Source of the DNA: an uncultured Pseudomonadota bacterium
Lineage (GTDB): Bacteria > Pseudomonadota > Gammaproteobacteria > Steroidobacterales > Steroidobacteraceae
DNA length: 64,000 bases
Direction: 5' to 3'
NCBI GenBank assembly: GCA_963832505.1
Contig: CAWHUD010000005.1
Coordinates: 68,215 to 132,214 of the forward strand
A program made the translations under genes and the position numbers. This document shows, piece by piece, positions 13,101 to 33,366 of the stretch (positions are counted from its first letter, which is position 1; each line of letters opens with the position of its first letter). Under the pieces are notes generated by a model. The model did no database searches. It saw only the letters and a list, made by a program, of their open reading frames with translations, and was not told the origin of the DNA.

Positions 13101-14875
13101 GCGGCGTGCTCGGTGGCGCGCAGTCCCACGTCAGGTTGCCGGAAGACGATCAGCACTGGCCAGCCCGGCTGCGCCGCGAGCAGGTTGCGGTATGCGCGTG
13201 ACCGCCTGCGTGATGTCGGTGATGCCCAGCACCAGCATCTGGGCGGAGCCGGCCGAGAGATTGCGCGTGATTTCGCTCACCGCCTCGCCGATGGCGAGTT
13301 CGGTGCGCATCTCGAGGCCGTGCCGCTGCTGCGCTTCCACGCGTGCGTCGAGCAGCTTGCGCATCGGTGCCGCGCGGCCCGTGGCCGGCGAACCTTCCGG
13401 GACGATCCCGAGGTATACGGCCTCAGCCGAGACATGGCGCAGCAGGCTCGCGGACACCGCCAGGGTCGCGCGGCGCACGGCTTCGTCGCTCCAGTGAATG
13501 TAGACCCGCGTCGGGCTCGGCGCATTTTTCGGCAGCACCAGCACTTCGGCCGCGCCATGTTGCAGCAGCCATTCCACCGTGGCCGCGGCATTGTCACCGC
13601 CGGCAATGGCTGCCACACCGGCGAGCGGCGCCGGGCGTGTCCTTGAGTCCGTCGATGGCGCGCACACTCACGCGAGTCTTCATGCGCGTCGAGAGGCTCT
13701 CGAGCAGCGGCTCACGCGCCAGCTCCTCGGCTTCCGCCTCGGTGGGAGCACAGGCGAGGAAGCTCGAAATCGGCGTGGGCAGCACGTGCAGTCGACGCGC
13801 ACCGAGCGCCACCTGGGTGCCGGCGCGCAGCGGCAAGCCACGCCGTTCGGGCTGCGTGCGCGTGATTTCCACCCGGGCTTCGGCGGCACTGCCCGAACCC
13901 AGCAACTGCGCAGCGCAGGGTTCATCGAGCAGGCGCACGCGCAGGCGTTCGAGCGCGCCCGTGAAGGCGATCTCCTCGACGGCGCCGCGCGCGATGTAAT
14001 TCGAGGACAGTTGCTCGCGTGTCTGGGCAACTTCCACTTCCTCGGGACGCAGCACCGCGACCACCTCGTGTTCGCGCCCCGCGTACATGCGGTTCCGTGG
14101 CCTCGGCGGTGACGGGCGTGGCGCCGAAACGGATGCCGTCGGCGCCCTGGCGCGCGAGCAGCAGGTTGGCGGCGCCGAGAAACGTGGCGACGAAGCGCGT
14201 GGCAGGCTGCGCGTACAGATCGTGCGGGTGTCCGACCTCCAGCAGTCGGCCGTGATTCATCACGCCGATGGTGTCGGCCAGTGCGAAGGCCTCTTCCTGG
14301 TCGTGCGTGACCAGCACCGTGGTGATGCCGAGCTCGCGCTGCACCGCGCGGATGGTCCGGCGCAGTTCTTCGCGGATCTTGGCGTCGAGGGCGCCGAAGG
14401 GTTCGTCGAGCAGCAACACCTGCGGCTTGTGCGCCAGCGCACGCGCCACGGCCACGCGCTGCTGCTGGCCGCCGGAGAGCTGGCCAGGCAGGCGTTCGTC
14501 GAGGCCCTCGAGCGCGACCAGTTTGAGCAATTCCTTGCGCCGCGCGACACGCTCGGCGCGCTTCATGCGCCGCACGCGCAGCGCGAACTCGATGTTGTCG
14601 GCCACGGTCATGTGGCGGAACAACGCGTAGTTCTGGAACACCAGGCCAACACCGCGATCGCGGGCCCGGACGTGGGTCACGTCGCGCCCGTGCATCGAAA
14701 TGCGGCCATGATCGATGCCGGTGAGACCCGCGATGGCGCGCAACAGGGTGCTCTTGCCGCTGCCCGAAGGCCCCAGGAGCACGAAGAACTCGCCTTCGCC
14801 GACCTCTATCGATACGTCGTTGACAACCGGTTGATCCTGGTACCGCTTGGTGACTTGGTCGAGGGCAATGGACAT
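13097..14875 (-). pseudogene. cysA: sulfate ABC transporter ATPase CysA with a C-terminal USP-like extension; about 3 frame changes as assembled
   Basis: MSIALDQVTKRY. Walker A GPSGSGKST, LSGGQQQRVAVARAL, Walker B VLLLDEPFGALD, VTHDQEE, then a TOBE-like region. The reading continues without a stop into about 230 aa with universal-stress-protein-like strands (..MLVLGITD..PVLIVFRQ). Pieces are 13922-14908, 13594-14088, 13131-13667 and a short last frame. TGA 13097-13099 overlaps the cysT ATG. Confidence 0.8.
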
Positions 14876-15056
14876 GAAGGGCCGCGTGGCAAAAAACCGG
14901 GCCGCCATGCTATCAGCGCGCCGGTAGTAGCCCGAGTAACGCAGCGGTTACAATCCGGTCACAACAGCGCGGAACTTATTGATCCGGCTGGACGACTAAC
15001 GAGCACGCTTTTAGTCCACAATCATTCGGTCTTGGCACCGAAGCGAGAATTCCTGC

Positions 15057-15929
15057 ATGGCCACCGAGAACAATGCGCCGCTGTCCCTCGAAAAGACCGT
15101 CACCGGGCGCCAGGAACGACCCCACTGGGTCCTGGACGACGCGGTCTACAGCATCAGCGCACTGCTGCTCGCGGTCATCGTCATGCACAGCATCTGGACC
15201 CTGATCATCCGACCGCGCGCCGAGGCGGTGTTGTCCCAGCGCATCACGATCACCAACTCCAGCAACGTCAAGGCGCAGGTCATCCAGCTGCGCTCGGTGT
15301 ACGTCATCCTCAAGGACCACGAGCAGGAGCTGTGCGTCATCCTGTGCATGTGGTCGCTGCTGCTGCTCGGGCGCCAGGCCTGGCTCACGCAGAGGGATCG
15401 CACGCTGCTCGACAAGGACTATGTGCGCATCGGCGAAGCGCAGGTGGTGCTGCCAGAAGATGCGCGCGTCCATTCGCGGCCGCTCGAAGCCTTGCCGCGC
15501 CAGGAACAGGATGGCTTCCTGCCGCGCCTGCTGATGGTGGCGTACAACCGCTTCGGCGCCACGCGCAGCGTGCAGGACGCCGCCGAAGCGGTGCGCGACG
15601 AGTGTGAATTCGAAGCGGCGAGCATGGACACCAAGCTCTCGATGGTGAGGTTCACCGCCTGGGCCATCCCGGCCGTGGGCTTCGTCGGTACGGTGCGCGG
15701 CATCGGCGCCGCACTGCAGGAAGCCCAGGGTGCCATGGGTGGCGACATCTCCGGCGTGACCATGGGCCTCGGCATCACCTTCAATGCCACGCTCACCGCG
15801 CTGGTCTGCTGCATCATCGTGATGTTCTGGATGCACCAGCTCCAGCAGTACCAGGACCGCCTGGTGCTCGACGGCCGCACCTACGTCGACCGGCAGCTGC
15901 TGCGCAAGATGCGCGTCGTCTCCAAGTAG
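15057..15929 (+). CDS. MotA/TolQ/ExbB proton-channel family protein (no partner subunit adjacent)
   Basis: Intact 290-aa ORF with 3-TM topology. TM1 is VYSISALLLAVIVMHSIWTLII, followed by a long cytoplasmic loop. The family signature spans TM2/TM3: FTAWAIPAVGFVGTVRGIGAAL ... ITFNATLTALVCCIIVMFWMHQL. Confidence 0.7.
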   Translation: MATENNAPLSLEKTVTGRQERPHWVLDDAVYSISALLLAVIVMHSIWTLIIRPRAEAVLSQRITITNSSNVKAQVIQLRSVYVILKDHEQELCVILCMWSLLLLGRQAWLTQRDRTLLDKDYVRIGEAQVVLPEDARVHSRPLEALPRQEQDGFLPRLLMVAYNRFGATRSVQDAAEAVRDECEFEAASMDTKLSMVRFTAWAIPAVGFVGTVRGIGAALQEAQGAMGGDISGVTMGLGITFNATLTALVCCIIVMFWMHQLQQYQDRLVLDGRTYVDRQLLRKMRVVSK

Positions 15930-15952
15930 TTTCATCGTTGCCGCGGGACGAT

Positions 15953-16431
15953 GCTGCGTCGATCCTTCGTGATTGCTGGTGGCCGGCGTTATCGCCCTGC
16001 CCGCCGCCGCAGCACCGATACGAACTCGGCACGTTGACCATCACGCACCCCTGGTCGCGCACCGACCGCGCCCGGCATGCCGATGGGTGTCGCCTATCTG
16101 ACCATCACCAACAACGGCAAGGTGCCCGATGCACTGGTCGCCGCCAGCACGCCGGTCGCGGCCCGCGTCGAATTTCACCAGACCATCGATTGCCGACGGC
16201 ATGGCGCGCATGCGCCCGCTGCAGGAGATCGTCGTCGCGCCCGGCAAGACGCGTGAAGATCGAGCCCGGCGGCATTCATCTCATGCTGGTGGATCTCGAG
16301 TCAGCGCTGGTCACTGGCAAGCCGGTGCCGCTTACGCTGGAGTTTCGCGTCGCCGGACGAATCACCGTCGAACTCAGCGTCGAAACGGGCGATTCCCACC
16401 GGCAGCGGAACACTCGCAGCCACCGAAGTGA
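15953..16431 (+). pseudogene. periplasmic copper chaperone PCu(A)C (DUF461 family); about 3 frame changes as assembled
   Basis: Stitched from three frames: MLRRSFVIAG.. signal / YELGTLTITHPWSR / PGMPMGVAYLTITNNGKVPDALVAASTPVAARVEFHQT / ADGMARMRPLQEIVVAPGKT / VKIEPGGIHLMLVDLESALVTGKPVPLTLEFRVAGRITVELSVE. The 3' end is uncertain (16431 or 16465). Confidence 0.7.
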
Positions 16432-16625
16432 GTGTTGCGCGCCGGCATCGCCGCAGAGAGTGTAGGACAGCGCGCCATCAACTAACTACTTGGACAGCTC
16501 GACGCATAGCACCCGACGCAGTTTTTTCCTGCGCAGCTGCAATACTTGCCGTTCGACCGCAAACCCGGAAAAATGAAATCCGCCCTGTCGGCCTGCGCCA
16601 ACGTATTTGTTGCCCGTTCGCATCG

Positions 16626-16641
16626 TGGCCCGCTCCTTGCA
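16626..16641 (+). promoter_or_regulatory. candidate sigma-54 (RpoN) -24/-12 promoter TGGCCCGCTCCTTGCA
   Basis: Matches the consensus TGGCACG-N4-TTGCW with exact GG/GC spacing and one mismatch (A to C at -22). It lies 38 nt upstream of the ATG (16679) of the first paralogue of the array. Confidence 0.55.
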
Positions 16642-16678
16642 GTCAGATTTACTACAGCGGGTGACACCGGCAGGTTTC

Positions 16679-18891
16679 ATGCGGTTCGCGGTTTCTTGTT
16701 GCATTGCTCAGCGCTTTGTGTGCCAGCGCGGCTGGGGCGCGTCCCGTCACGGTCGAGCAACTGTCGACCTTTGGCACGCCTGATCCGGTTTACGACGGCT
16801 TCGCCGTCGATGTCGCTATCGACGGCGATTACGCCATCGTCACCGCGGGACGCACCGTGCCGGATCCCGGCGGCGATCCATTCCTCGACTGAGAATTTCC
16901 AAACAGCCTTCCTGTTCCTGCGCAGCGGCATACGCTGGAACGTGGTGCGCCGGCTCAACGAATACGAGCAAGAGCCCGATTTCGAGATACCGGTCGCGGT
17001 GGCCATGCAGAATGGCATCGCGGCGGTGCAGGGACTCGAACACCGACATCTGGGAACTGACACCGGGCGGCTGGGTGCAGTCGCCTGCAGAGCTCGCGCT
17101 CGAGGCGCCAGGTCCGGGTCTGTCCATCGACGGCGGGCGGTTCCTCAGCGGGGACGGCAGCGGGCCGTGGAATGCCAGCGTTCTCGAGAAAGACGCAACC
17201 AGCGTGTGGCGCACCTCCGCAGTCCTGCGGGGCAAGATGCGCCGCGACGGCATCGACGATGAGTTTCGAGGCGGTCCCGCGGACCTCTCGGGCGACTGGG
17301 CCGTGGTCCATCAGCCTGACGGCGAGGACGATCCGGTGCCCGAAACCTACATTTTTCACGATTACGGCGGGACCACGGGCTGGAACGAGCAAGCCCTATG
17401 GCAGCGCGCAGCGACCCGCCGGTGCCACGCTCTTCGGCCCGGAAGTCGCAATCCGCTGGCCGGACGTTTTCGTCGCCGGCGGCGATGAGTCGGGCACCTA
17501 CGTGTTCCGGGAAATTCCCGCACAGGGATTCCATCTCGCCACGCGCATCCAGGCGCTCGACAGTTTCATGGGCTCGGGACCGGCCGGCTCGTTTGCCAAA
17601 TCCGCGGAGTTCCTGCTGCAGCACGCCTGGAGCCACGACCGCAATGTCTTCGTCGTGAACGTGTTCCGCCAGCTCGCTGACTCGACCTACGAACATGTCG
17701 CGGTGCTGGCCGCGAAGAACGGCGAGTCGCTGGGGCACGCGATTTCCATCAGCGGCCGTCGCGTGCTGGTGGGCAACAACGGCAATGGGCTGGTGCATTA
17801 CTTCGAGATACCCGCAAACCTCGCCTCGCCGCAGCGTATCGAGGACAATTTCGCGACCGGCAACGGCACGGGCTGGACGACCAGCGCCGGCAGCCAGTTC
17901 TTCACCGCGCCACGCGGCAATCACGCGCGCCTATCGCCAGCTCAACATGAACCTGGTGGCGCGCGCCGTGCTCGACGCCAGCGATTTCCGCAGCCAGTCC
18001 ATCGAAGCGGATCTGCGCCAGATCAACTCGGCGGCGGGTGGTGGAGTCGGCCTCGCCACCCGTTTCCAGGGACCGGAAAACTTCTTCGACGTCATCCTGC
18101 GCAACAACGGGCGCGTCGAGTTGCGGCGCATGGCGGGCGGCACACTGCGCGTGCTGGCCGCGGCGGCGTTCCCATTCGCGCCCAATCGTTACTACCGCGT
18201 GCGACTCGAATCCGTGGGCACGCTGCACCGCGTATTCATCGACGGTCGCCTGATCCTCGATGCGGACAGTGCCGGCCCGACTCATGGCCGCGCCGCACTG
18301 GTCACGGACCGCTCCCAGGGCGAGTTCGACAACGTGATCGTCAGTCCGACACTGCATACCACGCTGTATGCCAACGACTTCGAGGGTGACTCGGCCGGAC
18401 CCTGGACACACACCGGTGTCGGCCTGTGGCACCTGTGGAGCGGATTGTCGAGCATGTATTACCAGAGCTCGATCGCCGGCGACGCACGCGCCAGCATCGG
18501 CGTGCCGACGAACGACCAGATCGTGCGCGTGCGCGCCCGCCTGGATACCTTCGCCACCGCCACCGGTACGCAGGAACGCTGGTTCGGCCTCATGGCGCGT
18601 CACGTGGATCCGCGCAACTACTATTACCTTTCGCTGCGCAACTCCAACACCGTGTCATTGCGAAAAGTCGTGAATGGCAACATCACGGTCCTGAAGAACG
18701 CGGCTTTCACCGTGCGCCCGACCACCTGGTACCAGCTCAGGCTCGATGCCATCGGCAATCACCTGCGTGTGTATGTCGACGGCAATCTGCTGCTCGAAGC
18801 GACCGATGCATCACTTCCCACCGGCAATTCGGGCCCGGTGATGTTCAAGGCCGCCGTCGACTACGACGACTTCCTCGCCTATCAACCCTGA
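16679..18891 (+). pseudogene. secreted FG-GAP-like beta-propeller + 2x LamG/ConA-like (DUF1080-type) protein, paralogue A; about 5 frame changes as assembled
   Basis: Signal peptide MRFAVS../..LSALCASAAGA. VDVAIDGDYAIVTAG, QTAFLFLRSGIRWNVV, ISISGRRVLVGNNG, FEIPANLASP, then two lectin-like modules ending ...GPVMFKAAVDYDDFLAYQP*. Collinear with 19121-21343. Frame changes near 16695, 16885, 17045, 17395 and 17925. Confidence 0.7.
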
Positions 18892-18919
18892 AATTCACCC
18901 ACGGCCTGCGGGGGATCTC

Positions 18920-19085
18920 ATGTTCGCCATTCGCACTGTAGTCGCAACGCTGCTCGGCTGTGCACTTGCCGGCACCGCCGCGGCGGCCCGCCCGCTGATC
19001 CGGATCACTCGCACGCGGTTCGGGTGGGCTGGTGACATTCAAGGCCGCCGCGAACTTCGACAACTACGACGCCTATCAACCCTGA
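18920..19085 (+). pseudogene. collapsed remnant of a fourth paralogue (signal peptide joined to the last ~29 codons, out of frame)
   Basis: 18920-18995 encodes MFAIRTVVATLLGCALAGTAAAARPL, matching the family N-termini. A different frame at 18999-19085 reads SGSLARGSGGLVTFKAAANFDNYDAYQP*, which matches the family C-terminus (..TGNSGPVMFKAAVDYDDFLAYQP*). Confidence 0.7.
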
Positions 19086-19120
19086 AACTTCCTGTCATGG
19101 CAGCCGTGAGGTAACCATTC

Positions 19121-21343
19121 ATGAGCTACGCGACGACATCCCGACGCATCCCCGTATTTGCCGCCCTGGCTGCCATCGCGTGCACCGCGGCGCTGGCACG
19201 TCCACGGCCGCTGGCGATCCAGCCCTCGCAGGCCATCACCTCGCCGGTGCCGGCGACCTATCAGAACCTGGGCTACGACTCGCTGGCAATCGACGGCGAC
19301 TGGGCATTGATGACCGCCAACAGCCCTTCCGGTGTCGACTGGCAGTACGACAACCAAGCGCTGCTTTACCGCTACGTGAATGGCCAGTGGATCTTCGATC
19401 GCCTGCTGGTGTCCGACCTGATTGGCAGCTACAACGACTACACCTGGCCTTTCGTCGCGATGTCGAACGGACTCGCCGCCGTCTCGTTCCACCCGCTGCA
19501 CATGTACCGACGCAGCGGCGCGACCTGGACCGAGATCGCCCATCCTTTCACTGCCGGCAATGGCAGCCGGGAGCGCATCGATGGCCCGTTGCAGTGGGAT
19601 GGCTCCACGCTCGCAGCCCTGGTCGGGCGCTGCTGGTCGAACCCGGACTACTGGGGCGCGCTCTACGCCACTCACAACCCCGCCGACGACAGCTGGACCA
19701 CGCCTGTCTACGTATCCGCCAACGATACCTGCGACCTCATGCCTTCGCTGATCGCAAAGTCCGGCAACACGCTGGCGGTCTCCGGTTTCACGAACGATTT
19801 CGAAGAGGAACCCGACCAGGTGCGCGTATTCCGCAATGGCGCCGGGGGATGGCAGCAGGTCTTCAAGGTGCCTTCTTCCGGCGAAGCCGTGGCCGCGCGC
19901 GATCCGGAAGTCTTCGTCGCACAGTGGTACGACGAAGGCATCGAGGTGCATCGCAGCGACTCGACGCTGGGAGTCATCGACCGCCTGGTCACTCCCGACA
20001 CCGGGGCATCAATCTATCCGGCCGTACGCATCGCGGTAACCGCCACGCACGTGTTCGCCATCAACAAGGGCCGCGTTGACGTGTTCGGAAAGAATACCGA
20101 CGGAAAATACGAGCACGTGGCCGCGCTGCTCGGCAACGCCCAATGGTCTCCGGGCTGGACCCTGGCGGTGAATGGACGCCGCGTGCTGGTGCATGCCCAC
20201 AGCACCGACAACTCCAGCAATACCGCCGTGCTCGCGTATGAGTTGCCGGTCGATCTGGCGACTCCGCCACTGCAGCAGCACACCTTCGAGTCCGGCAACG
20301 CCAATGGCTGGACGCCCACCGCCGGCAGCCAGTTCAGCGTCGTGCAGCAGTATGGCAATCGCTTCTATCGGCAAACCAGCCTCGCCGGCGATGCGCGCGC
20401 CGTGCTCGATGACAGCGACTGGAACGATGCAACCATTACGGCAGACATCCGGCCCACCGGCTTCAATGGATCGGATCGCTGGGTGGGCCTCGCGACCCGT
20501 TACGCGAATGCCTCCAACTTCTACTACGTGACGCTGCGCAGCTCGGGAACCATACAGCTGCGGCGGGTGCTCGATGGCGCGATCACGATCCTCGCCACGC
20601 AACCGCTGGCCGTGACCGCCGGCAAGAAATACCGCGTGACGCTGCAGACCGTGGGCGCGACACAGCAGGTCTACCTCGATGGCCGGCAGGTGCTGTCGGC
20701 CAGGGACGCGACGCTGCAGCGCGGCCGTGCCGCGCTGGTCAGTTTCCGCGCGAGCGTGGAATTCGACAACGTCATCGTGCAACCCTCGCTGAAGTTCACC
20801 ATCTATGACTTTGACATCGCCAATTGTTCCATCTACGACGGTCCGGAATGGACGCTGACCGGTCCGGGTAGCTGGACCTGCGATTCCAAGGGCACCAACA
20901 CCCGCTATCTCATCCAGAGCTCGGTGGCGGGTGACGCGCGTGCCATATCGGGCACGTCCACCGACGACCAGGTGACGCAGGCGCGAGCGCGCGCCACGGC
21001 CTTTGCGGCGCCGACCGGCAGCCAGGAGCGCTGGTTCGGCCTGGCGACGCGCTACCGGGATCCGGCCAACTTCTACTACCTGTCGGTGCGCAGTTCGAAC
21101 CAGGTATCGCTGCGCAGGGTAGTCAATGGATCGATCACGGTGTTGGGCAGCACTGCGCTCAACGTCGCGCCGGGCACCTGGTACCGGCTCAGGCTCGAGG
21201 CGGTGGGCGCCGAGTTGCGCGCCTACGTCAACGACAACCTGGTCCTGCAAGCACGTGACACCGCCCTGCCGACAGGCAAGTCAGGCGCCGTGACCTTCAA
21301 GACGTCGGCCGAGTACACCGGTTTCAGAACCTGGCAGCCCTGA
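19121..21343 (+). CDS. secreted FG-GAP-like beta-propeller + 2x LamG/ConA-like (DUF1080-type) protein, paralogue B
   Basis: Intact 740 aa. Signal peptide ..AALAAIACTAALA. Propeller-blade strands LAIDGDWALMTAN, VAMSNGLAAVS, LQWDGSTLAAL, IAKSGNTLAVSGF, LAVNGRRVLVHAH, each with a preceding [YF]R..G..W. Two modules carry GDARA..RW[VF]GLATRY..NFYY..R..YR/WY..L..VG...YL/VNG. Confidence 0.7.
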   Translation: MSYATTSRRIPVFAALAAIACTAALARPRPLAIQPSQAITSPVPATYQNLGYDSLAIDGDWALMTANSPSGVDWQYDNQALLYRYVNGQWIFDRLLVSDLIGSYNDYTWPFVAMSNGLAAVSFHPLHMYRRSGATWTEIAHPFTAGNGSRERIDGPLQWDGSTLAALVGRCWSNPDYWGALYATHNPADDSWTTPVYVSANDTCDLMPSLIAKSGNTLAVSGFTNDFEEEPDQVRVFRNGAGGWQQVFKVPSSGEAVAARDPEVFVAQWYDEGIEVHRSDSTLGVIDRLVTPDTGASIYPAVRIAVTATHVFAINKGRVDVFGKNTDGKYEHVAALLGNAQWSPGWTLAVNGRRVLVHAHSTDNSSNTAVLAYELPVDLATPPLQQHTFESGNANGWTPTAGSQFSVVQQYGNRFYRQTSLAGDARAVLDDSDWNDATITADIRPTGFNGSDRWVGLATRYANASNFYYVTLRSSGTIQLRRVLDGAITILATQPLAVTAGKKYRVTLQTVGATQQVYLDGRQVLSARDATLQRGRAALVSFRASVEFDNVIVQPSLKFTIYDFDIANCSIYDGPEWTLTGPGSWTCDSKGTNTRYLIQSSVAGDARAISGTSTDDQVTQARARATAFAAPTGSQERWFGLATRYRDPANFYYLSVRSSNQVSLRRVVNGSITVLGSTALNVAPGTWYRLRLEAVGAELRAYVNDNLVLQARDTALPTGKSGAVTFKTSAEYTGFRTWQP

Positions 21344-21353
21344 AGGAGTGGCC

Positions 21354-23585
21354 ATGAAACACATTACTTTGTTGGGCCATGTCGGCGCGGTGACCGCGCT
21401 GATTGCGACGATTTCGACGCCGACGCTGGCGCGGCCGCTCGTTCTGCAGCCCACGCAGGTGCTGACATCGCCGGCACCCGCGTATCGCGATTTTGGCGTG
21501 CAGTCGCTGGCAATGGACGGCGACTGGGCGCTGGTAACCGCCAACAACCGCCCGCCTTCGTCTACCGATTTCGAGTTTGACGACCAGGCCCTGCTCTATC
21601 GCCGCGTGAACGGGCAGTGGGTTTTCGATCGTGTGCTGCTGACGGATCACGTGGGTGGCAGCAGCTTCGACTACACGCCTCCGACGGTGGCCATGTCGAA
21701 TAGCCTCGCGGCGGCGTCGTTCAATCCCATGCGGGTATTCCGGCGCAGCGGCAGCAGCTGGACCGAGATCAGCCATCCGTTCACCGCGCCGCCGCGTACC
21801 CGGGACTGGATCAACGGCATCGTGAGCTGGGATGGCTCCACACTCGTCGGCAATTCAGGTTTCTCGGACACGGACTGTTATGGAGCGGTGTACGCCACGC
21901 ACGGCGCCGGCGACGTCTGGACACCGCTACAGTTCGTATCGGCCGGCAACTGCGACCTCGTCGTCAACCGCGTGGCCAAGTCCGGTAACACGCTGGCTTT
22001 CGCAGCGTATCCGGACTCCACGGAAAGCGAGGTTCTCAGCCAGGTCCGTGCCCTGCGCAATGGCCCGGCGGGATGGCAGTTTGCCTTCAGCATCAACTCG
22101 CGGGGAGACGTGGTCGCCGCACGCGATCCGCTGGTGTTCGTACCGCACGATGGTGCAGACGGTGTATCGGCCTATCGCAGCGATTCCGGTGTTGCCCATC
22201 CGGATCCCGACGATCGACTGGCGGCACCCGACTACAACTACTACATCCAGTCACCCTCCGATAACGTGGTGACGACGCCGAACTACGTCCTGGCAAGCAG
22301 CTTTGACCGCACGGACGTATTCGCCAGGAACACGGCCGGGCGCTACGCGCACGTGGCGGTGCTGCGCTCCAACGACTATTTCTCGGGTTATTACTTCTTT
22401 CCCATGGCCATGAGCGGGCGCAACGTTCTGCTCTTCTCCCGTCATGTAGAGGACAACTCGAGAACCGCAGTGCTGGCCTTCGAGCTGCCGGCAGACCTCA
22501 CGACTCCCGCAGTCCAGCAACACACTTTTCAATCCGGAACCGCGAATGGCTGGGCGCCGACAAGCGGCCAGTTCGCGGTCGCCCAATCGGGCACCAACCG
22601 CATCTACCGCCAATCGAGCCTCGCCGGTGATGCACGCGCCGTGCTCACCAACAGCGACTGGACTGATGCGACCATTACCGCGGACATCCGCCCGAGGGAG
22701 TTTTCGGGCAACGATCGCTGGGTGGGGCTCGCAACGCGTTACGTGGACGCGTTCAATTTCTACTACGTGACGATGCGCAATTCGGGGACCATCGAGCTGC
22801 GACGTAACTTGAACGGCGTGTACTCGACACTCGCCTCACAGCCGCTCGCCGTCACGGCCGGCCGCAACTACCGCGTGTCGCTGCAATCCCTCGGCGACTC
22901 CCAGAATGTCTATCTCGATGGCAAGCTGCTGCTGTCAGCGAGAGATGCATCCCTGGCGCGCGGGCGTGCGGCCCTGGTCGGCTACCGTACCAGCGCGGAC
23001 TTCGACAACGTGATCGTCCAACCGTCGATGTTCTTCCCCATCTTCGACCTCGATTTTCCCAATAGCTGTTCCATCCACCTGCCCGAATATTCGGTTAGCG
23101 GCAATGGAAACTGGGATTGCGATCCTCTGGGCACGACGACGCGCCACATCATCCAGGATTCGCTGGCGGGGGATGCACGCGTCATGGTCGGCACCACCAC
23201 TGACGACCAGACGATCCTGGCACGGGCACGCGCCACCGCGTTCGCCGCGCCGAGCGGGGCGAGCACGGAGCGCTGGTTCGGCCTGGCAACCCGGTTCCAG
23301 GACACCTCAAACTACTACTACCTGTCGGTGCGCAATTCGAACCAGGTGTCGTTGCGCAAGGTGGTAAACGGCGCCATCACCGTGCTCGGGAGTGCGCCGC
23401 GCCCCGTCACGGCCGGCACCTGGTACGACCTGCGGCTGGAGGCCGTGGGCAACCAGGTGCGCGCCTACGTGAATGGAACGCTCGCAATCCAGGCCACTGA
23501 CAGCACCCTCGCCACCGGCAAGTCCGGGCTGCTTACCTTCAAGTCGGCGGCGCAGTTCAAGGGGGTACGCGCGTATCAGCCCTGA
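21354..23585 (+). CDS. secreted FG-GAP-like beta-propeller + 2x LamG/ConA-like (DUF1080-type) protein, paralogue C
   Basis: Intact (743 aa from ATG 21354; AGGAG at 21344-21348). Same architecture as paralogue B: LAMDGDWALVTAN, VAMSNSLAAAS, VAKSGNTLAFAAY, MAMSGRNVLLFS, and two lectin-like modules ending ..KSGLLTFKSAAQFKGVRAYQP*. Confidence 0.7.
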   Translation: MKHITLLGHVGAVTALIATISTPTLARPLVLQPTQVLTSPAPAYRDFGVQSLAMDGDWALVTANNRPPSSTDFEFDDQALLYRRVNGQWVFDRVLLTDHVGGSSFDYTPPTVAMSNSLAAASFNPMRVFRRSGSSWTEISHPFTAPPRTRDWINGIVSWDGSTLVGNSGFSDTDCYGAVYATHGAGDVWTPLQFVSAGNCDLVVNRVAKSGNTLAFAAYPDSTESEVLSQVRALRNGPAGWQFAFSINSRGDVVAARDPLVFVPHDGADGVSAYRSDSGVAHPDPDDRLAAPDYNYYIQSPSDNVVTTPNYVLASSFDRTDVFARNTAGRYAHVAVLRSNDYFSGYYFFPMAMSGRNVLLFSRHVEDNSRTAVLAFELPADLTTPAVQQHTFQSGTANGWAPTSGQFAVAQSGTNRIYRQSSLAGDARAVLTNSDWTDATITADIRPREFSGNDRWVGLATRYVDAFNFYYVTMRNSGTIELRRNLNGVYSTLASQPLAVTAGRNYRVSLQSLGDSQNVYLDGKLLLSARDASLARGRAALVGYRTSADFDNVIVQPSMFFPIFDLDFPNSCSIHLPEYSVSGNGNWDCDPLGTTTRHIIQDSLAGDARVMVGTTTDDQTILARARATAFAAPSGASTERWFGLATRFQDTSNYYYLSVRNSNQVSLRKVVNGAITVLGSAPRPVTAGTWYDLRLEAVGNQVRAYVNGTLAIQATDSTLATGKSGLLTFKSAAQFKGVRAYQP

Positions 23586-23586
23586 T

Positions 23587-24897
23587 TCAATCCGGCATCC
23601 TCTGCCCGCGCGTCTCGACCACCCAGTGCATGAAGAACAGCGCGATGAGTGGCACGGCCGCGATCATCAGGTGCGCACGCAGGAAAATGCCCGGATCGCC
23701 CTTGCCGGCCGCGGTAACCGCGCCCACCGCGAACACGCCACCGGCCGCGACCACGCGACCGATGTTGTAGCAGAAGCCGGCGCCGGTGGAGCGCAGGCGG
23801 GTCGGGAACAGCTCGGGTAGATAGAAGGTGAAGCTGCCGAACACTCCGAAGATGGCGAGGCCGATGAAGAAATACAGGTACAGACGCGTCTCGGCCGGGA
23901 TATCGAGGCCGAAAGTCGCGAACAATGCGGCCGAGGACGCCACGAAGTACACCTTGTACATCGTGCGCCGCCCGAAGATCTTGGCGAAGGGAATCGTCAA
24001 CAGCGTGCCGATCAGGCCACCCAGGTTGAAGGCGTTGGTCGCAGTCCTGATCCAGTCCTGCTTGAGTGCGGCGGTGGCCGCCGGATCCAGCGCGCGCACC
24101 AGGGCTTCCGCACCCGCGAGCGCATTGGCCACGGCCTGGATGAACACATTGCAGCTCCACCAGGTGATCAGCGCGGCCAAAGTCACGATCAGCGCACTGC
24201 GGGTGCGCGGCAATATCTCAGGCGAGAATATCTCGCGCAGCCGGGCCGGCGCGGCCGTGGCGGCCACGGATTTCCAGCGTTCGGGTTCCTTGACGAAGAT
24301 GCGCACCAGGAAGGCCGCGGCCGCGGGCAGCAGCCCGAACAACAGCACGTAGCGCCAGGATTTCGCCGGGTCGTGCGCGAACCAGTCGCCCGCCACTTCG
24401 GCGTTGATGAAGGTGGCGAGGAACAATCCGAACGGGGCCGAGGTGTACAGCAACGCGCCGGCTTCCACCCGCGATTCCTCCGGGACGACTTCCGCGACCA
24501 TGGCCGAACCCGCCGCCCATTCGCCGCCGATACCGAGGCTGGCGATGATCCGGCAGGCGATGAGCTGCCAGATGTCCGTCACGAAGGCACAGGAGGCGGT
24601 ACCCACCGCGTACATCAGCATGGTGATCAGCAACACGCGCCTGCGGCCGAAGCGATCGCAGATCGGCCCAAATATCACGCCTCCCGCGGCCCAGCCCAGC
24701 AGGAAAATGGAATTGAGGATGCCCGTCCAGTACGGCAGCGCGGTGCGCGCCTCCTCCCCGCCGATCGGCAGCCCTAACAATGTCGGCACCGCGTTGGGCG
24801 CGACGTAGTTGAACAGCAGCCCGTCGAAAACGTCGAATCCCCAGCCGAGCCAGGCGGCGAAGAACACGGTCCATTGATAGCGCGACAGTTTGATCAT
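23587..24897 (-). CDS. MFS transporter
   Basis: Intact. Likely start MIKLSRYQW at 24897. 12-TM-like pattern with GPICDRFGRRRVLLITM (MFS motif A) and IIASLGIGGEWAAGSAMVAEVVPEESR. Its stop lies 1 nt from the stop of the convergent paralogue C. Confidence 0.8.
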   Translation of the reverse strand: MIKLSRYQWTVFFAAWLGWGFDVFDGLLFNYVAPNAVPTLLGLPIGGEEARTALPYWTGILNSIFLLGWAAGGVIFGPICDRFGRRRVLLITMLMYAVGTASCAFVTDIWQLIACRIIASLGIGGEWAAGSAMVAEVVPEESRVEAGALLYTSAPFGLFLATFINAEVAGDWFAHDPAKSWRYVLLFGLLPAAAAFLVRIFVKEPERWKSVAATAAPARLREIFSPEILPRTRSALIVTLAALITWWSCNVFIQAVANALAGAEALVRALDPAATAALKQDWIRTATNAFNLGGLIGTLLTIPFAKIFGRRTMYKVYFVASSAALFATFGLDIPAETRLYLYFFIGLAIFGVFGSFTFYLPELFPTRLRSTGAGFCYNIGRVVAAGGVFAVGAVTAAGKGDPGIFLRAHLMIAAVPLIALFFMHWVVETRGQRMPD

Positions 24898-24916
24898 GGC
24901 GCGCGAGTGTAAACGA

Positions 24917-25014
24917 ATGGGGACGGACTTTAGTCCGTCCCCATTCAAGAAGGACCTTTGACGAAGTGTTGAGTGGGGACAGACCTGAGGTCAGTCCCCA
25001 CGCGTTTACGCGTG
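24917..25014. repeat. cluster of three stem-loops, two of them REP-like copies of GGGGAC(N)GAC..GTC(N)GTCCCC; probable minus-strand terminator region
   Basis: Hairpin 1: 24917-24928 / 24933-24944, a 12-bp perfect stem with loop TTTA. Hairpin 2: 24973-24985 / 24989-25001, 13 bp with one mismatch and loop TGA. Hairpin 3: CACGCG-TTTA-CGCGTG at 24999-25014, overlapping the stop of the GGDEF-EAL gene. Confidence 0.6.
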
Positions 25015-26788
25015 CTTGAACATGATGGGAATGCCGGAAGGCGTGCTGAGCGACTTCGCTTCCGTGAACGGGCGTTCGCGGCCTTCGGGGGCGCGATCGG
25101 CGACCGCAGCCAGCACGTCGTCCAGCGGACCCGGACGACCAAGCGCATAACCCTGGCCGAACTGGATGCCGAGCGCCGCGAGCCGGTCGCGCACGCCATT
25201 CGATTCGACGAACTCCGCCACGGTGGTGATGCCCATGGAATCCGCGAGCTGCACGATGGCGCGCACCAGCGCCTGCGAGCGCGTGTTGGTCAACACGTCG
25301 CGCACGTACGAGCCGTCGAGCTTGATGGTGCTGATCTCGAGATTCTTGAGATAGGCCAGCGAGCTCACGCCCGTGCCGAAGTCGTCCAGCGCGAAACGAA
25401 CGCCGTGGCTGGTCATGCGGCGGATGAATTGCTGCACGTGGGAGAGGTTGGCGGCGGCCGCGGCCTCGGTGATCTCGAACACCAGGCTGGTGCCGTCGAT
25501 GTTGTACTTGGCCATGGCGGACAACAGCCACTCGAGGAACTCCGGGTCCGACAGCGTCGGGCCCGAGAGGTTGATCGACACGCGCAGCGGACCGGCCGGA
25601 GAAGTGTTCGTGCTGAGCTGCTGGAAGGCGCGCTCGCACACCGCGCGATCGATCTCGGGAAGGATCTGGTAACGCGTGGCCGCCGACATGAAGTCGGCCG
25701 CTTCGACGAGATTGCCCTTGCCGTCGATGATGCGCACCAGCAGTTCGTAGGTCACCGGCAGCGTGTGATTGATCAGCGGCGTGATGGGCTGGGCGAACAC
25801 GACGATGCGCTTGTTGCGCAAGGCTTCGCGCACGGCGCCGATGAGCCCGATTTCGTCGTGCCGGCGGATCATGCTTTGGTCGGTGTCCTGGAAGACCTCG
25901 ACCCGGCCGCGACCACGGTCCTTGGCGGTCTTGCACGCGATCTCGGCTTCGGCGATCCGGTGATCGAGATGCAGTTCCGAAGCATTGGTCGTGACCACGC
26001 CCCAGGAAATGGATACCGGGTGTTCAAATCCCTTGTGCGCGTCGGCGCTGCTCACGTCGCGGCAGACGCTGTCGGCAAGCTGGCGCGCCTGCGCCAGGTT
26101 CATGTGCGGCAGGAATACCGTGAAGCGGTCACCCGACAGCCGACAGGCGAAACTCTCGCCGCCCACCAGCGCCTTGCGGATCGCATGCGCGCAGCGCGTG
26201 ATCACGCGGTCGCCGTCGGAGAATCCTGCCAGGTCGTTGATGACATGCAGGCGATCGATGTCGCCGTACAGCATGGACAACATCGCGTTGCCCTCGTGGG
26301 CGCGTACCCACGAATCGATGCGATTCTTGAAACCTTCCCACGACAACAGGCCGGTGAGCGAGATCCAGGTCCTGGGTGGCGCTGCGCGCCAGCAGGCGCG
26401 CGAAGCGGGCCAGGCGGCGGACGGTGAATTCGTCGAAGCTCGGCTCGTCCGGGCGATTGAAAACGATGAGCGCGCCGGCCGCACCGCCACGCGCGATCAG
26501 CGGGACCGCGACCAGTTTGCAGGCGATGTTGCCGCCGCTCTTGTGCTTGAGCTTGTTGGTGGCAATCGGCTTGCGGCTGTCGATGCAACGGCGCGCCAGC
26601 TCGTTGCCGACGATGGCCAGCTGCTCGCGTGCGAACGCGGCGTCCTCCTCGGAGCGGCTCCAGACCGCGCTGGTTTCGCCGCGCGAGAACACCGCGGTCG
26701 CGGCGGTACAGCCCAGTCGCAGGCAGACCGCGCGCAAAACACTTTCCGTACCGCGCTCGGGCACCGGGCCCAGGTCGCGCGCAGTCAT
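25006..26788 (-). pseudogene. GAF - degenerate GGDEF (SGDRF) - EAL c-di-GMP signalling protein; one frame change as assembled
   Basis: GAF-like N-terminus in ORF 26129-26803 (from MTARDLGP). Frame change near 26370. ORF 25006-26490 then carries RLSGDRFTVFL in place of GGDEF, and an EAL domain with YELLVRI, FEITE, DDFGTGVSSLAYL, KLDGS, EFVES and QGY. Confidence 0.8.
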
Positions 26789-26962
26789 CTCAGCTGACCT
26801 CACTGCTCTCTCCGCTGCTCTTTTTTCTGTCTTGTGGTGGTTCGCGGGATGAGATTAGACGAGTGACCTGGGGCATAAGCCCACGCACGTCGCATCTTTA
26901 CGGCAGTCCGCGCAAGCGGTCGCCCACCTGCCGGATTATGAGAAGCGCTACCGCAGGTTATG

Positions 26963-29727
26963 TCAGATGCCCCGAAATCGCCCGGTGGCCGAGTAGTCGA
27001 CCGTGCCGCTCAGGTTGCCACCCAGCAGGCTGCGGCGCCGCGTGACGGCCGCCTGCAGGACTTCCTCGATGGGCATGGGCTTGCCGAAGGAGTAGCCCTG
27101 CCCCGTGCGGCAGCCCAGCGCCAACAGGGTGTCGCGCTGCGCGTCGACCTCGATGCCCTCGGCCACGGTGTCCAGTCCCAGTGCTTCGGCCAGCGACATG
27201 ATGGCGCGTGCCAGCGCCACGGCGTCCACGCCTTCCATGGCGCCGTCCTCGCGCACCAGTCGTTCGACGAATGTGCGATGGATCTTGAGGATGTCGATCG
27301 GAAAACGATGCAGGTAGGCCAGCGAGGAATACCCGGTGCCGAAGTCATCGAGCGCCAGTCGCACGCCGATGAGTTTCAGTTCCTTGAAGGTCTGCTCGAC
27401 GCGCTCGGAATCCTCCAGCAGCAGGCTTTCGGTCACCTCGAGGATCAGGCTCTCGGGCCGGATCGCGTGCCGCTGCAGCGCCGTGCGCACGTCGGACGAC
27501 GATGCTGCCGTGGTCGAGGTAGCGGCTCGAAATGTTGACCGACATGCGCACTCCGTCGCCCTGCGCGATGTTGCGCTGAAGCGCGACCGAGATCGGCGCA
27601 GGCGCGATCGAGCATCCACTGCGTCATCGGCACGATCTGCCCGGTCTCTTCGGCGAGCGGAATGAATTCGCCGGGCATCACCAGCTCGCGCGTCGGATGG
27701 CGCCAGCGCATCAGCGCCTCGACGCCGACGAGGTGGCGCGACGCCAGGTCCACGATGGGCTGGTAATACGCCACGAACTGGTGCTGCTCGATGGCGATCG
27801 CCAGTTCGTTTTCGATGCGCATGCGGCGCCGCGCGGCGCGCAGCATCTCGGGCGCGAAAACCTCGACGTGACCCTTGCCGCGCGACTTGGCCGCGTACAT
27901 GGCCGCATCGGCGTTGCGCAGCAGGCGTTCGACGTTGCTGGCGCGGTCGGCAATCGCCACGCCCACGCTGGCGCCAATGCGCACCGGCCGGCCGTCGATT
28001 TCAAAGGGCTGCCGGCAGGCGTCGATGACCTGGCGTGCAACAGCCAGCGCCGCGTCGACGCCGGGCGCATGGTCGACGAGCACCGCGAATTCATCGCCGC
28101 CGAGCCGCGCGACCGTATCGCCGGCGCGCGTGCAATGCACCAGCCGGTGCGCGAAGCCGCGCAGCAGCAGGTCGCCGGCGCTGTGTCCCAGGCTGTCGTT
28201 GACCGTCTTGAAATCGTCGAGGTCGATGAACAACACCGCCGGCGTCCGGCCGTCGGCCACGTGGCGGATGGCCTGGTGTACGCGGTCGGAGAACAGCGAA
28301 CGGTTGGCGAGCAGCGTCAGCGGATCGTGGAATGCCAGCGTGCGCAGCTGATCGTTGAGCCGCGCGGCATCCGACACGTCGCGAATGTTGAGCGTGATGC
28401 CGCGAATCGAATCCACGTGGCAGAGGTTCGCGATGACCATCTTGAACGAACGCTTCTCGCCCTCTGCCTGCGGAATGGAGAACATCGCGTTCTGCTCGGA
28501 GTTCGGCGTCGCCAGCACCTGGTTGAAGGCTTCGCGGACGTGCGGGGCTTCGGGACCGAGCACGTCGTCGAGCCGCTGGCCGTTGAGCTCGCCCGGCGTG
28601 GCATCCAGCAACTGTTCCGAGGAAGGGCTGGCATAGCGGATCACGCCTTCGATATCGCAGATGGCGATCATGTCGCTCGAGCGGCGCACCAGCTCGGTGA
28701 GCCGCTCGTCGAAACGCCGCGTGGCAACTTCACGATGCAGGCTGGTGACTTCGCGCGTGGCCAGCGCCTGGCTCGCGATCACCAGCACGGTCGATACCAC
28801 CATCACCGCGATGAGCAGCGGTGACTGGAAATTCGTCAGCCCGAGGCGATCGTCGAGCAGGGCGATGATGCCGGTCGACAGCGCGACGATGGGCAGCGAG
28901 CCACGCAGGTCGCCCTGCAGACCGAACGTGTCGACACCGGGATTGCGCTGCTGCCGCTGCGCACGGGCGCTCATCATCAGGCCGAGGTAGAAACCGAAAT
29001 ACGCCAGGTCGCTGGCCGCGCCGACTTCATAGGTGCCGCTCAACTCGGCGTTGACCCACAGCAGGTCGGCCAGCAGCGTCGCCACCATGGCGAGCAGCAG
29101 CCACACCAGCGGCCGTTCCGCGCGCCAGTTGGTGAGCTGCATGGCCAGCATCGCTCCCGCGATGAGTGCGATCGCGTTGCCGAGGCCGTAACCCGCCACG
29201 GACCAGTTCTCGGCAATCTGCGCGACGCTCATGTCGCCGAGCGGCTGCAGCGCGGTGAACCACAGCAGGGCGCAGAAGCCGATCGCCAGCGTGGCGAAAT
29301 CGATCAGCGAGCGCGCGGTGTTGAGATTGCCGCCGCGGTCGAAGTACAGCAGTCCGCAGGCCACGGCGGCCATCGGGTAGTAGAAAAGATAGAGCACGTC
29401 GGGCCAGGCGCCGATCGTCTCCTGCCCGGTCAGTGCCGCGTAACCCCAGCCGGTGCTTGCGATGAGATCCAGGATCAGCGCCCCGAAGATCAGCTGGAAC
29501 GCCAGCCGGCAGCGCCGCGTGAGCGACGTGTCGGTGATGACCGGCCACAACAGGAGACCGGTCGCCAGCACCAGCGGGTACGTGCCCCAGGCGCCGATGA
29601 ATTCCGCGGCTTCCTCGCCACCCCAGCCCGAGAACAGCGCCGCCGCGCAGGCGCCGCTGTAGATCAGACTCAGGATGACCAGAGTCGGCGCCCAGCGATC
29701 GGCGAATTTTGCGAGGGAGAACGTCAT
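26963..29727 (-). pseudogene. membrane sensor - PAS - GGDEF - EAL protein; about 2 frame changes in the EAL domain as assembled
   Basis: ORF 27445-29751 (start MTFSLAKF at 29727). About 8 TM segments, a PAS domain, and RAGDTVARLGGDEFAVL (RxxD I-site 5 residues before GGDEF). EAL domain with EALMRW. Its C-terminal part continues in ORF 26963-27619 (ILEVTE, DDFGTGYSSLAYL, QGYSFGKP). Confidence 0.85.
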
Positions 29728-29936
29728 GGATGTCCGCCGGCATGATGTCAAAGGCCCCTGCTAGCCGACCTGATCGCAGTCACATCGCCAAAGTGGTCAC
29801 GCGCGCGTATCGCAACGTCGTGCACAGATCCGCGATGTGGTTCGCGCCGCCTGGCACCGCCTTGCCGCTTGCCAGCCCGGAAGCGACTCGTCAGACTGCC
29901 CCGGGCTAAAGGAAGGCCCTGAGAGAATCCCTGACA

Positions 29937-30671
29937 GTGACGCGCAACATCCGACCGCTCCTGCTCATCACGCTCGGTGCCAGCCTGACGGCTCATGCGG
30001 ACTCGGTGAACGTGTATTCGGGCAGCATCGGTGGCACCTCCGACTTGGTGTTCCGCGGGCTGTCGCTCACGCGCGGCAAACCCGCGGCGCAGGCGTCGAT
30101 CGACGTCGAGTTTCCGCGGGAGTTCTACGCCGGCGCGTTCGTCGCCACCTGCGATCCCAATCCCGGCCCGAGCCCGGCGGTCGAAATGGATGTCTGGGCC
30201 GGCCGCTACTGGCGCATGTCGGAGAATTTTTCCGCCGACGTGCGGCTCTCGCAGTACACCTATCCCGACGATCCGCGCCGCGTGAGCTACAACCGCACCG
30301 AGATCACCGGCACGCTGGGATATCGCAACCAGCTGTTCGTCGGCGGCTATCTACTCCCCGAACACCAAGGCGCCTGGCCTCGTCGCCCGGGTATGAAGAA
30401 GGCAGCGCCTGGGCGCTGGAGCTGTCAGGCCGTTATCCCATCAACGATCGATTCGCGCTGTCGGCCGGCTTCGGCCACTACGGCCTGCGACGACGTCTAC
30501 CACGACAGCTACAACTACTGGAACGTCACGCTGACGGCCACGCTCAAGCCCTTCGAGCTGCAGCTTGCCTACCTCGGGGTGGACGACAGCGCCACCGAGC
30601 ATTTCGACGACGATGCCGTCGGCGACCGGGTGGCGTTTACGGCCCTCTGGCGCTTCTCCTCGACCCGCTAG
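29937..30671 (+). pseudogene. Gcw_chp/TorF-family predicted outer-membrane beta-barrel protein; about 2 frame changes as assembled
   Basis: Signal peptide LLLITLGASLTAHA. SGSIGGTSDLVFRGLSLTRGKPAAQASIDVEFPREFYAGAFVAT..VEMDVWAGRY matches my memory of the Gcw_chp family. The middle part (EEGSAWALELSGRYPINDRFALSAGFGHYGL) lies in the frame of ORF 29837-31345. The end returns to the first frame (..NYWNVTLTATLKPFELQLAYLGVDD..FTALWRFSSTR*). Confidence 0.6.
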
Positions 30672-30706
30672 CGGCCCGGGAACCTGAGGGGCGCGGGCCG
30701 GTACTC

Positions 30707-32018: not shown

Positions 32019-32040
32019 AGAGGGGCCCGCTAAGAGGCCC

Positions 32041-33340: not shown

Positions 33341-33366
33341 CGCCGCAGCGCGCCTTCGGGCTGCCG

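Follow-up and report, generated by a model that had tools for sequence, protein, structure and literature searches.

What would a bacterium gain from a row of large exported proteins that resemble one another from end to end and, over their full length, match nothing of described function? The question is raised by a tandem gene array at positions 16679 to 23585 of a 64,000-nucleotide (nt) stretch of DNA, here called the window, from an uncultured member of the Steroidobacteraceae (Gammaproteobacteria; assembly GCA_963832505.1, contig CAWHUD010000005.1). An earlier description made from the letters alone, the sequence-only reading, had identified three consecutive genes whose products combine a signal peptide, a beta-propeller and two lectin-like modules, and had marked them as candidates for an undescribed function. 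We find a family built from two known module types in a combination of its own. The reading that we prefer, tentatively and at a little under even confidence, is that its members are Sec-exported, probably non-catalytic, multivalent glycan-binding proteins encoded in a sigma-54-dependent operon. Steroidobacteraceae are common Gammaproteobacteria of soil and rhizosphere; some carry at least eight copies of the family, no member of which has been named.

Architecture of the array

As it stands in the record, the array consists of one frame-broken gene (gene 1) followed by two intact ones (gene 2 and gene 3). The description of three similarly built genes of about 740 codons on one strand holds for genes 2 and 3, which are paralogues with 57% protein identity end to end, and fails for gene 1, whose interval of 2213 nt is no multiple of three and contains no single open reading frame (ORF). 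Motifs quoted earlier as shared, GDARA, RW[VF]GLATRY and NFYY, are present in both intact genes; the C-terminal pattern [FY]x[AT][YW]QP, said to close all copies, does not fit gene 3 exactly, which ends V-R-A-Y-Q-P. The protein of gene 2 has an exact copy in public sequence data (P0001). Gene 3 is 95% identical to P0004 from L001, a JGI contig that is 95% identical to window positions 17431-33606 and that served as the reference for insertions and for ratios of nonsynonymous to synonymous substitution rates (dN/dS). The ORF list offers starts for gene 3 at 21348 or 21354, giving 745 or 743 residues, and the ATG at 21354 is supported because homologues start MKHITF. Since only 10 nt separate gene 2 from the start of gene 3, the two are probably co-transcribed. 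Comparison with L001 gives a dN/dS of 0.33 in gene 2 and 0.21 in gene 3, and one of 0.09 in the transporter gene that follows them.

The N-termini are of Sec type, with A-x-A before a nearly invariant RP, in agreement with the sequence-only reading, which had also reported no lipobox anchor; none is conserved among homologues. Three other signals were considered and set aside. The lipobox-like AIAC of gene 2 is not conserved in homologues, and the twin-arginine motif SRRIPVF of the same protein is not conserved in paralogues. The C-terminal QP is no sorting signal: it closes module 2 just as the homologous stretch FDNVxVxP closes module 1, and the last strand of the gene 2 model (728-739) belongs to the sandwich.

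An AlphaFold2 model of the full-length gene 2 product, built from a 114-sequence alignment, is all-beta, with a predicted local distance difference test score (pLDDT) of 92.9 and a predicted template-modelling score (pTM) of 0.91. Behind the signal peptide come seven blades of four strands each (residues ~30-375), followed by two beta-sandwiches, at 385-560 and 575-740. Pfam and Foldseek searches with gene 2 returned no characterised match over the full length, and both the propeller and the sandwich assignments survived them.

The N-terminal propeller

The sequence-only reading had taken about seven degenerate repeats in the N-terminal half for FG-GAP-like propeller blades, and modelling and profile searches agree. 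Modelled alone, the domain has 29 strands in seven four-stranded blades (pLDDT 93.3). Its Foldseek neighbours in the PDB are all generic seven-bladed propellers, namely eIF3i, Sec12, PALB2, the polysaccharide lyase (PL) FoRham1 of PL42 and PL24 ulvan lyases, with template-modelling (TM) scores of at most 0.58. The Pfam model PF14312 (FG-GAP_2) gives no match at E<=1 for gene 2, gene 3 or the gene 1 fragment; it is passed by the homologues P0013, P0021 and P0033, whose 26-29 bits exceed its cut-off of 23. When a propeller profile made from genes 2 and 3 was searched against 1.84 billion representatives, 464 proteins were found. Matches outside the family span several repeat stretches at E 1e-12 to 1e-16, and all ten of those scanned were canonical FG-GAP_2 proteins, scoring 184-905 bits. 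Judged by these profile relationships, the propeller is a divergent member of FG-GAP_2. Bacterial FG-GAP_2 proteins likewise form seven-bladed propellers from repeats of about 50 residues with the pattern [LV]A..G..A...A / ..[YF]R..G.W. The present family differs in that its repeats are very degenerate, in that it has one closed propeller where FG-GAP_2 proteins have long multi-propeller arrays, and in the addition of sandwich modules. To our knowledge, no characterised enzyme belongs to the FG-GAP_2 repeat family.

Conservation in this domain looks structural. Among the 114 sequences, conservation of at least 85% is reached by W, G, Y, L, A, P and M residues and by R85, R94 and D160, all of them in the repeat motifs. 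No Asp, Glu or His of the propeller is invariant in that set, and D160 is the sole acidic residue to reach 85%. Integrin-type Ca2+-binding loops have the form DxDxDG; of candidate residues of this kind, only DGD in blade 1 and WDG (D160) are conserved. Pairs of family members share on average 32% of their residues in the propeller, against 48% in module 1 and 53% in module 2.

The C-terminal modules

Two jelly-roll modules had been proposed for the C-terminal half, and two are found: all-beta domains of about 170 residues with pLDDT above 94, matching PF06439 (DUF1080), PF13385 (Laminin_G_3), PF21708 and the carbohydrate-binding module (CBM) BsCBM66. Aligned with one another, the two modules of gene 2 share 41% identity (E 1e-33). 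PF06439 scores 30.8, 30.9 and 33.7 bits in the three copies against a gathering score of 26.8, although its best stretches are only partial and in several copies cover the last third of the model alone; PF21708 and PF13385 are matched at or near their cut-offs. When the family profile was run against PDB sequences with hmmsearch, the entries 4AZZ, 4B1L and 4B1M were matched at E 2.5e-11 to 4.7e-11, the alignment joining query positions 424-548 to chain positions 37-162 over about 125 residues. Entry 4AZZ is BsCBM66 (PMC6560043), and the names CBM66 and DUF1080 refer to the same domain (10.1101/179903). A DUF1080 structure, 4JQT, is among the top full-length Foldseek matches as well.

Both modules retain the same set of W, R, N, Y and R in the block RW.GLATRY..N.YY..LR, in module 1 the residues W454, R460, N466, Y468 and R473. 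The conserved polar residues are R417, Q418, D442, R460, N466, R473, D549 and N550 together with their counterparts in module 2. Tandem pairs of modules with the same conserved residues are typical of CBM pairs that act by avidity. The closest relatives of the modules outside the family are accessory domains of large extracellular proteins, where they keep company with PKD, Big, fn3, CBM9 and dockerin domains. Examples come from Verrucomicrobia, with PKD, MBG, Big_7 and two DUF1080 modules, and from Paenibacillus and Cohnella, with BNR, four fn3, DUF1080 and two CBM9 domains; a further one is a dockerin-bearing protein that also has a SASA esterase domain.

The known CBM66 modules, BsCBM66 of the Bacillus subtilis exo-levanase SacC and CsCBM66 of a Cohnella xanthanase, share with those of the family the ConA-like sandwich of about 170 residues, and related modules serve as accessory domains of extracellular glycan-active proteins (PMC11002231). 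The characterised ligands are levan and inulin ends and, for CsCBM66, lyase-treated xanthan (PMC11002231; PMC6560043), and the usual partners are catalytic domains such as those of glycoside hydrolase (GH) families GH32 and GH43 or pectate lyases (PMC11002231). The present modules differ in being tandem-duplicated and joined to an FG-GAP_2 propeller where known CBM66 modules are joined to a GH or PL catalytic domain. The known specificities are terminal fructosides and lyase-treated xanthan, and a carbohydrate ligand for the family is suggested by homology. The label of lectin used in the sequence-only reading is not proven, because the DUF1080/CBM66 fold holds enzymes as well as binders, among them the 3-keto-glycoside lyase/hydratases BT2157 and AL2 and the endo-xanthanase THTE_1561 (PMC9007349; 10.1101/2024.03.25.586180).

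A conserved sigma-54-type promoter

Ahead of gene 1 lies the element TGGCCCGCTCCTTGCA, which has one mismatch to the -24/-12 consensus TGGCAC-N5-TTGCW. Taken alone the match would not be significant, one being found in the window against 2.4 expected by chance. About 15 independent loci have a sequence of the form TGG[CT]CC-N5-TTGCA some 40 nt ahead of the start codon of the family gene that stands first or alone. Its boxes are conserved in sequence and position, its spacers vary, and in the loci compared it was never found before internal genes of an array. The comparison strongly supports the sigma-54-type promoter that had been proposed upstream of the array.

Further conserved elements surround it. 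In at least 10 loci (L002, L005, L006, L009, L015, L034, L043 and L065 among them) the motif CTAACTAC follows 8-20 nt downstream of the -12 box. The window has copies at about 16650-16660, in the 5' untranslated region (UTR) and in the form TTTACTAC, and at 16482-16489, just past the stop codon of a receptor remnant. Because Rfam gives no match in 15900-19200 at E<=1, the 5'-UTR motif lies outside known RNA families. Tandem dyads resembling G(C/G)AA-N5-TT(C/G)C, candidate sites for an enhancer-binding protein, are found in about 15 loci at a distance of 90-130 nt upstream of the promoter. Promoter, 5'-UTR motif and upstream dyads together offer a handle for finding the inducing signal.

With this promoter ahead of the lead gene, the array would be transcribed as an operon. 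Because the promoter would be sigma-54-dependent, an enhancer-binding activator should be needed, presumably encoded elsewhere and answering some signal; a protein with the GAFTGA motif of such activators was found near the family in only one of 81 loci. The window itself encodes two sigma-54 enhancer-binding proteins (GAFTGA/GSFTGA), at ~43752 on the forward and ~48598 on the reverse strand, 25-30 kb from the array.

Distribution and novelty of the family

The family has several hundred members. At least 164 homologues over the full length, 34-59% identical and every one named hypothetical protein, were retrieved by a word-indexed search, and no NCBIfam model matches gene 2. A scan of species-representative genomes with a 12-sequence alignment (a set that does not include the genome of the window, the best match being 48% identical) gave 74 loci, almost all in Steroidobacteraceae and with several loci per genome. 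Hosts include Steroidobacter gossypii, S. flavus, Peristeroidobacter agariperforans, Povalibacter and many soil metagenome-assembled genomes (MAGs), one of which has at least eight copies. The largest array found has six genes in tandem, in a Steroidobacteraceae MAG (L034 5765-18534), where genes b and c form a recent pair with 77% identity. Lead genes of the gene 1 type share 58-64% identity across genera and only 28-46% with their own array neighbours. By these identities, arrays mix old subfamilies with recent duplicates, genes 2 and 3 being a lineage-specific pair. The expansion noted in the sequence-only reading is thus real, but it is not peculiar to the window: it is widespread within the lineage.

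The suggestion of an undescribed function stands up as well. Apart from the missing NCBIfam match and the uninformative names, Foldseek finds no characterised protein that fits over the full length (TM 0.2-0.3), and no description of an FG-GAP_2 propeller combined with CBM66 was found in the searchable literature. The family is nonetheless a novel combination of two known module families and not a new kind of system.

Binding proteins or enzymes

If the proteins bind glycans, the two well-conserved modules would bind a carbohydrate polymer or oligosaccharide bivalently, the propeller, which diverges fast, could present a second binding surface that differs between paralogues, and a tandem set of paralogues might cover a range of related ligands. 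The purpose could be either periplasmic or cell-surface capture of a substrate or attachment of the cell to a matrix. We prefer binding to catalysis because the match to the non-catalytic CBM66 is the stronger and longer one, because the module is tandem-duplicated, because related modules occur in accessory-domain contexts, and because the propeller has no conserved catalytic constellation. Several points weigh on the other side. The DUF1080/CBM66 fold includes true enzymes (PMC9007349; 10.1101/2024.03.25.586180). CBMs are normally joined to a catalytic module, so that a protein that only binds is less usual. The full-length Foldseek list is made up of glycosidases with a propeller and a sandwich, though at the low TM-scores given above, and no recognisable glycoside hydrolase or lyase that could act on a captured substrate is encoded near the family loci examined. 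A link to the neighbouring transporters, finally, would rest on synteny within one bacterial family, and the receptor is missing from the window.

Catalysis could reside in either half of the protein. The C-terminal modules might be DUF1080-type enzymes, either 3-keto-glycoside 1,2-lyase/hydratases acting after a periplasmic glycoside 3-dehydrogenase or endo-glycanases like THTE_1561, with the propeller as a substrate-binding domain or scaffold. We regard this as improbable. It draws on the PF06439 scores, which exceed the cut-off in all three copies, on the many polar residues conserved in both modules, and on DUF1080 proteins with proven or genetically supported catalysis, BT2157, CCNA_01705, THTE_1561 and AL2/BT2 (PMC9007349; 10.1101/2024.03.25.586180). 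A GMC oxidoreductase with a Gluconate_2-dh3 subunit, encoded 1-6 kb from one subgroup of the family, would fit it too, but just one orthologous locus, accounting for 4 of about 78 loci, shows this association, which is missing from the window, and the conserved locus has no dehydrogenase, sugar isomerase-like lyase or reductase partner. The PF06439 matches are moreover marginal and partial next to the match to BsCBM66, and tandem duplication of a catalytic domain would be unusual. Alternatively the propeller could be the catalytic domain of an undescribed GH or PL family, targeted by two CBM66 modules as the GH32 domain of levanase SacC is by its CBM66, an idea that strikes us as less probable still. 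The habitual union of CBM66 with GH32, GH43 and pectate lyases (PMC11002231) speaks for it, as do the GH32, GH33 and GH43 glycosidases at the head of the full-length Foldseek list, the seven-bladed lyases among the neighbours of the N-domain (FoRham1 at TM 0.58, and the PL24 ulvan lyases), and the TonB-dependent receptor and transporter that flank the array in relatives. Yet non-enzymatic WD40-type scaffolds reach equal or better TM-scores than those lyases, the 114 sequences show no near-invariant Asp/Glu/His constellation, the conserved positions being structural, and the propeller is both the least conserved part of the protein and a member of a repeat family in which we know of no enzyme.

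The resemblance to propeller glycosidases, such as the GH32 levanase BT1760, GH33 trans-sialidases and GH43 xylosidases, is one of layout and not of family. These are the top full-length Foldseek matches (E ~1e-12, identity ~10%), and they too have an N-terminal propeller followed by a ConA-like sandwich. Their propellers have five or six blades and conserved catalytic carboxylates, whereas the family protein has seven blades, no conserved acidic constellation and two sandwiches.

For glycan-binding proteins, the nearest comparisons are the carbohydrate loci with TonB-dependent receptors in Xanthomonas-type Gammaproteobacteria and the surface glycan-binding proteins of polysaccharide utilization loci in Bacteroidota. 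By analogy with the former, the array of relatives lies between a TonB-dependent receptor and an inner-membrane symporter of the major facilitator superfamily (MFS); the proposed capture of glycans without catalysis would resemble the latter. Unlike both, the family locus has no glycoside hydrolase, lyase or local regulator; the receptor of relatives carries an unusual N-terminal PCuAC domain and is missing from the window, and the transcription units are separate, the array having its own sigma-54 promoter and the MFS gene being convergent. Should the proteins prove to bind glycans, they would be a proteobacterial counterpart of the Bacteroidota surface glycan-binding proteins and would extend CBM66, with its two known specificities, to a large new group. 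That the family instead constitutes a new class of carbohydrate-active enzyme, whether through a catalytic FG-GAP_2 propeller targeted by two CBM66 modules or through paired DUF1080 3-keto-glycoside lyase/hydratases of a periplasmic oxidative pathway, seems to us unlikely; in either form the tandem paralogues would be a sigma-54-controlled battery of specificities for soil polysaccharides, and a new family of the CAZy type would be defined.

A fourth paralogue and the state of gene 1

The spacer of 229 nt between genes 1 and 2, overlooked in the sequence-only reading, holds the remnant of a further family member. A tblastn match at 19005-19082 was its first sign. The remnant consists of the first 27 and the last 28 codons of the gene, and its translation ends FDNYDAYQP-stop. 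At the same position L001 has a gene for a 720-residue paralogue, of which the interior (L001 1572-3568, 1997 bp) is missing from the window. By this comparison, the ancestral array had four genes.

The pieces of gene 1 (Table 1) were located by three-frame translation and by tblastn with the intact 738-residue orthologues P0119 and P0120. Joining them takes four +1 shifts, near 16870-16893, 17032-17041 and ~17400-17420 and at 17922, and one more just past the ATG at 16679, so that five of five are +1. The reconstructed gene is 95% identical to its L001 orthologue, which lacks the extra C present at 17922. With that base removed beforehand, dN/dS against L001 is 0.14, so that purifying selection acts on gene 1. 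About 20 single-base insertions, none in homopolymers, set the window apart from L001, those at 26361, 27498 and 27589 among them; a block free of them (19001-24900, which spans genes 2 and 3 and the MFS gene) starts exactly at the junction of the 2-kb deletion. By comparison with intact orthologous proteins, the region from 11.4 to 33.3 kb has broken frames in 8 of its 14 genes, all through single-base insertions; breaks number two in a CysW-like gene, three in the gene of a 603-residue ABC ATPase, four in gene 1, one in a GGDEF-EAL gene, two in a PAS-GGDEF-EAL gene, one in an anti-sigma gene and three in an S8 peptidase gene.

Because the breaks are widespread and one-directional and gene 1 is under purifying selection, they are most likely errors in the sequence record and not biological. 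Two features of their distribution do not sit easily with this: the density in gene 1 is about three times the local average (4-5 in 2.2 kb against ~0.6 per kb in flanking genes), and genes 2 and 3 and the MFS gene are free of breaks over 5.9 kb. Gene 1 could accordingly be seen as a genuine pseudogene in a locus that decays in this lineage through loss of the receptor body, deletion of one paralogue and frameshifts in the lead gene, which would leave genes 2 and 3 without their promoter-proximal partner. Besides the density of breaks, this would agree with the 2.0-kb deletion, with the absence of the receptor body and of the photolyase gene known from relatives, and with module 1 of gene 1 reading NLVARA in place of GDARA. 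We consider it the less likely account. Single-base insertions of the same kind break seven further genes nearby, sulfate-transporter subunits, a sigma/anti-sigma pair and a protease among them; a technical bias is indicated by every shift being +1; the dN/dS of gene 1 is no higher than that of the intact copies; and the orthologue at 95% identity does not have the insertion at 17922.

A record with so many single-base insertions calls for caution over apparent pseudogenes. Family genes in the MFD long-read MAGs L012, L026, L040, L055, L058, L059 and L065 are likewise split across several frames. Some public MAG collections thus commonly contain frame-broken copies, and a pseudogene call needs support from reads.

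Neighbouring genes

Table 1. Coordinates of the array, its parts and adjoining features. Positions refer to the window unless a contig of a relative is named.
Feature	Position	Strand	Description
PCuAC/TonB-dependent receptor remnant	15938..16465	+	Upstream of array; PCuAC domain (Pfam, 34 bits) and stop context; plug and barrel missing
Candidate activator-binding region	16530..16615	+	Putative; dyads such as GCAA-N3-TTGC and GGA-N9-TCC
Sigma-54-type -24/-12 promoter	16626..16641	+	TGGCCC-GCTCC-TTGCA; 37 nt before gene 1 ATG
Gene 1 (lead, g1-type paralogue)	16679..18891	+	Frame-broken; corrected product ~735 residues
Gene 1 piece	16689-16868		Frame 0
Gene 1 piece	16894-17031		Frame 1
Gene 1 piece	17042-~17400		Frame 2
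Gene 1 piece	~17420-17918		Frame 0
Gene 1 piece	17923-18888		Frame 1
Remnant of fourth paralogue (P0048-type)	18920..19085	+	166 nt; signal peptide and ARPLI joined out of frame to last 28 codons
Gene 2	19121..21343	+	ORF, ATG start, 740 residues, intact
Gene 2 signal peptide	19121-19198	+	
Gene 2 FG-GAP_2-type seven-bladed propeller	19202-20260	+	
Gene 2 CBM66/DUF1080-like module 1	20273-20800	+	
Gene 2 CBM66/DUF1080-like module 2	20843-21340	+	
Gene 3	21354..23585	+	ORF, ATG start, 743 residues, intact; architecture as gene 2
MFS transporter, convergent	23587..24948	-	453 residues; Pfam MFS_1 and Sugar_tr
GMC with Gluconate_2-dh3	L041 2723-5090		
GMC with Gluconate_2-dh3	L059 15718-18039		
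GMC with Gluconate_2-dh3	L080 13951-16332		
GMC with Gluconate_2-dh3	L081 14423-16777		

The convergent MFS transporter gene reported beside the array is present, and by clustering of flanking ORFs it is the most constant neighbour of the family: in 12 loci it lies convergent and directly downstream, at a median distance of 11 nt. Its product resembles symporters of aromatic acids, sialate or metabolites with H+; all matches to NCBIfam subfamilies are below their cut-offs. On the other side, relatives have the gene of a 917-947-residue receptor with PCuAC, Plug and barrel directly upstream of the array in 10 loci. In the window a remnant is left, of which 16046-16392 aligns to L002 7191-7534 and which shares the stop context TGTAGGA with relatives; the photolyase gene found ahead of the receptor in relatives is missing. 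A receptor with an N-terminal PCuAC (copper-chaperone) domain is itself an unusual fusion, PF04314 scoring 111 bits (L002 7020-9773; L034 2793-5633).

Family loci outside this conserved syntenic locus have unrelated neighbours. Neither flanking-ORF clustering nor the neighbourhoods themselves show a recurring GH, PL or regulator near family loci, and the earlier statement that no partner enzyme is recognisable agrees with the absence of any glycoside hydrolase or lyase nearby. A cluster of carbohydrate-active enzymes was sought at the divergent members P0015, P0062 and P0110, where the neighbourhoods are heterogeneous and none was found. The GMC oxidoreductase and Gluconate_2-dh3 small subunit near one subgroup (Table 1) resemble periplasmic glycoside 3-dehydrogenases, the partners of DUF1080 enzymes. 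The GMC proteins are 86-91% identical between loci, and the pair was rejected as a general link to the family.

Two other genes close to the array stand out. The sulfate-transporter operon next to the array includes a CysA-like ABC ATPase (window 13131-14908, reverse strand; L005 174-2009) that is unusually long in relatives, at 591-612 residues, with an extension of about 250 residues past the TOBE region that has no Pfam match; the window gene is split over three frames. A stand-alone gene at 15057-15929 on the forward strand encodes a 290-residue member of the MotA/ExbB family with no adjacent ExbD or TonB gene, and its synteny is kept in 11 loci.

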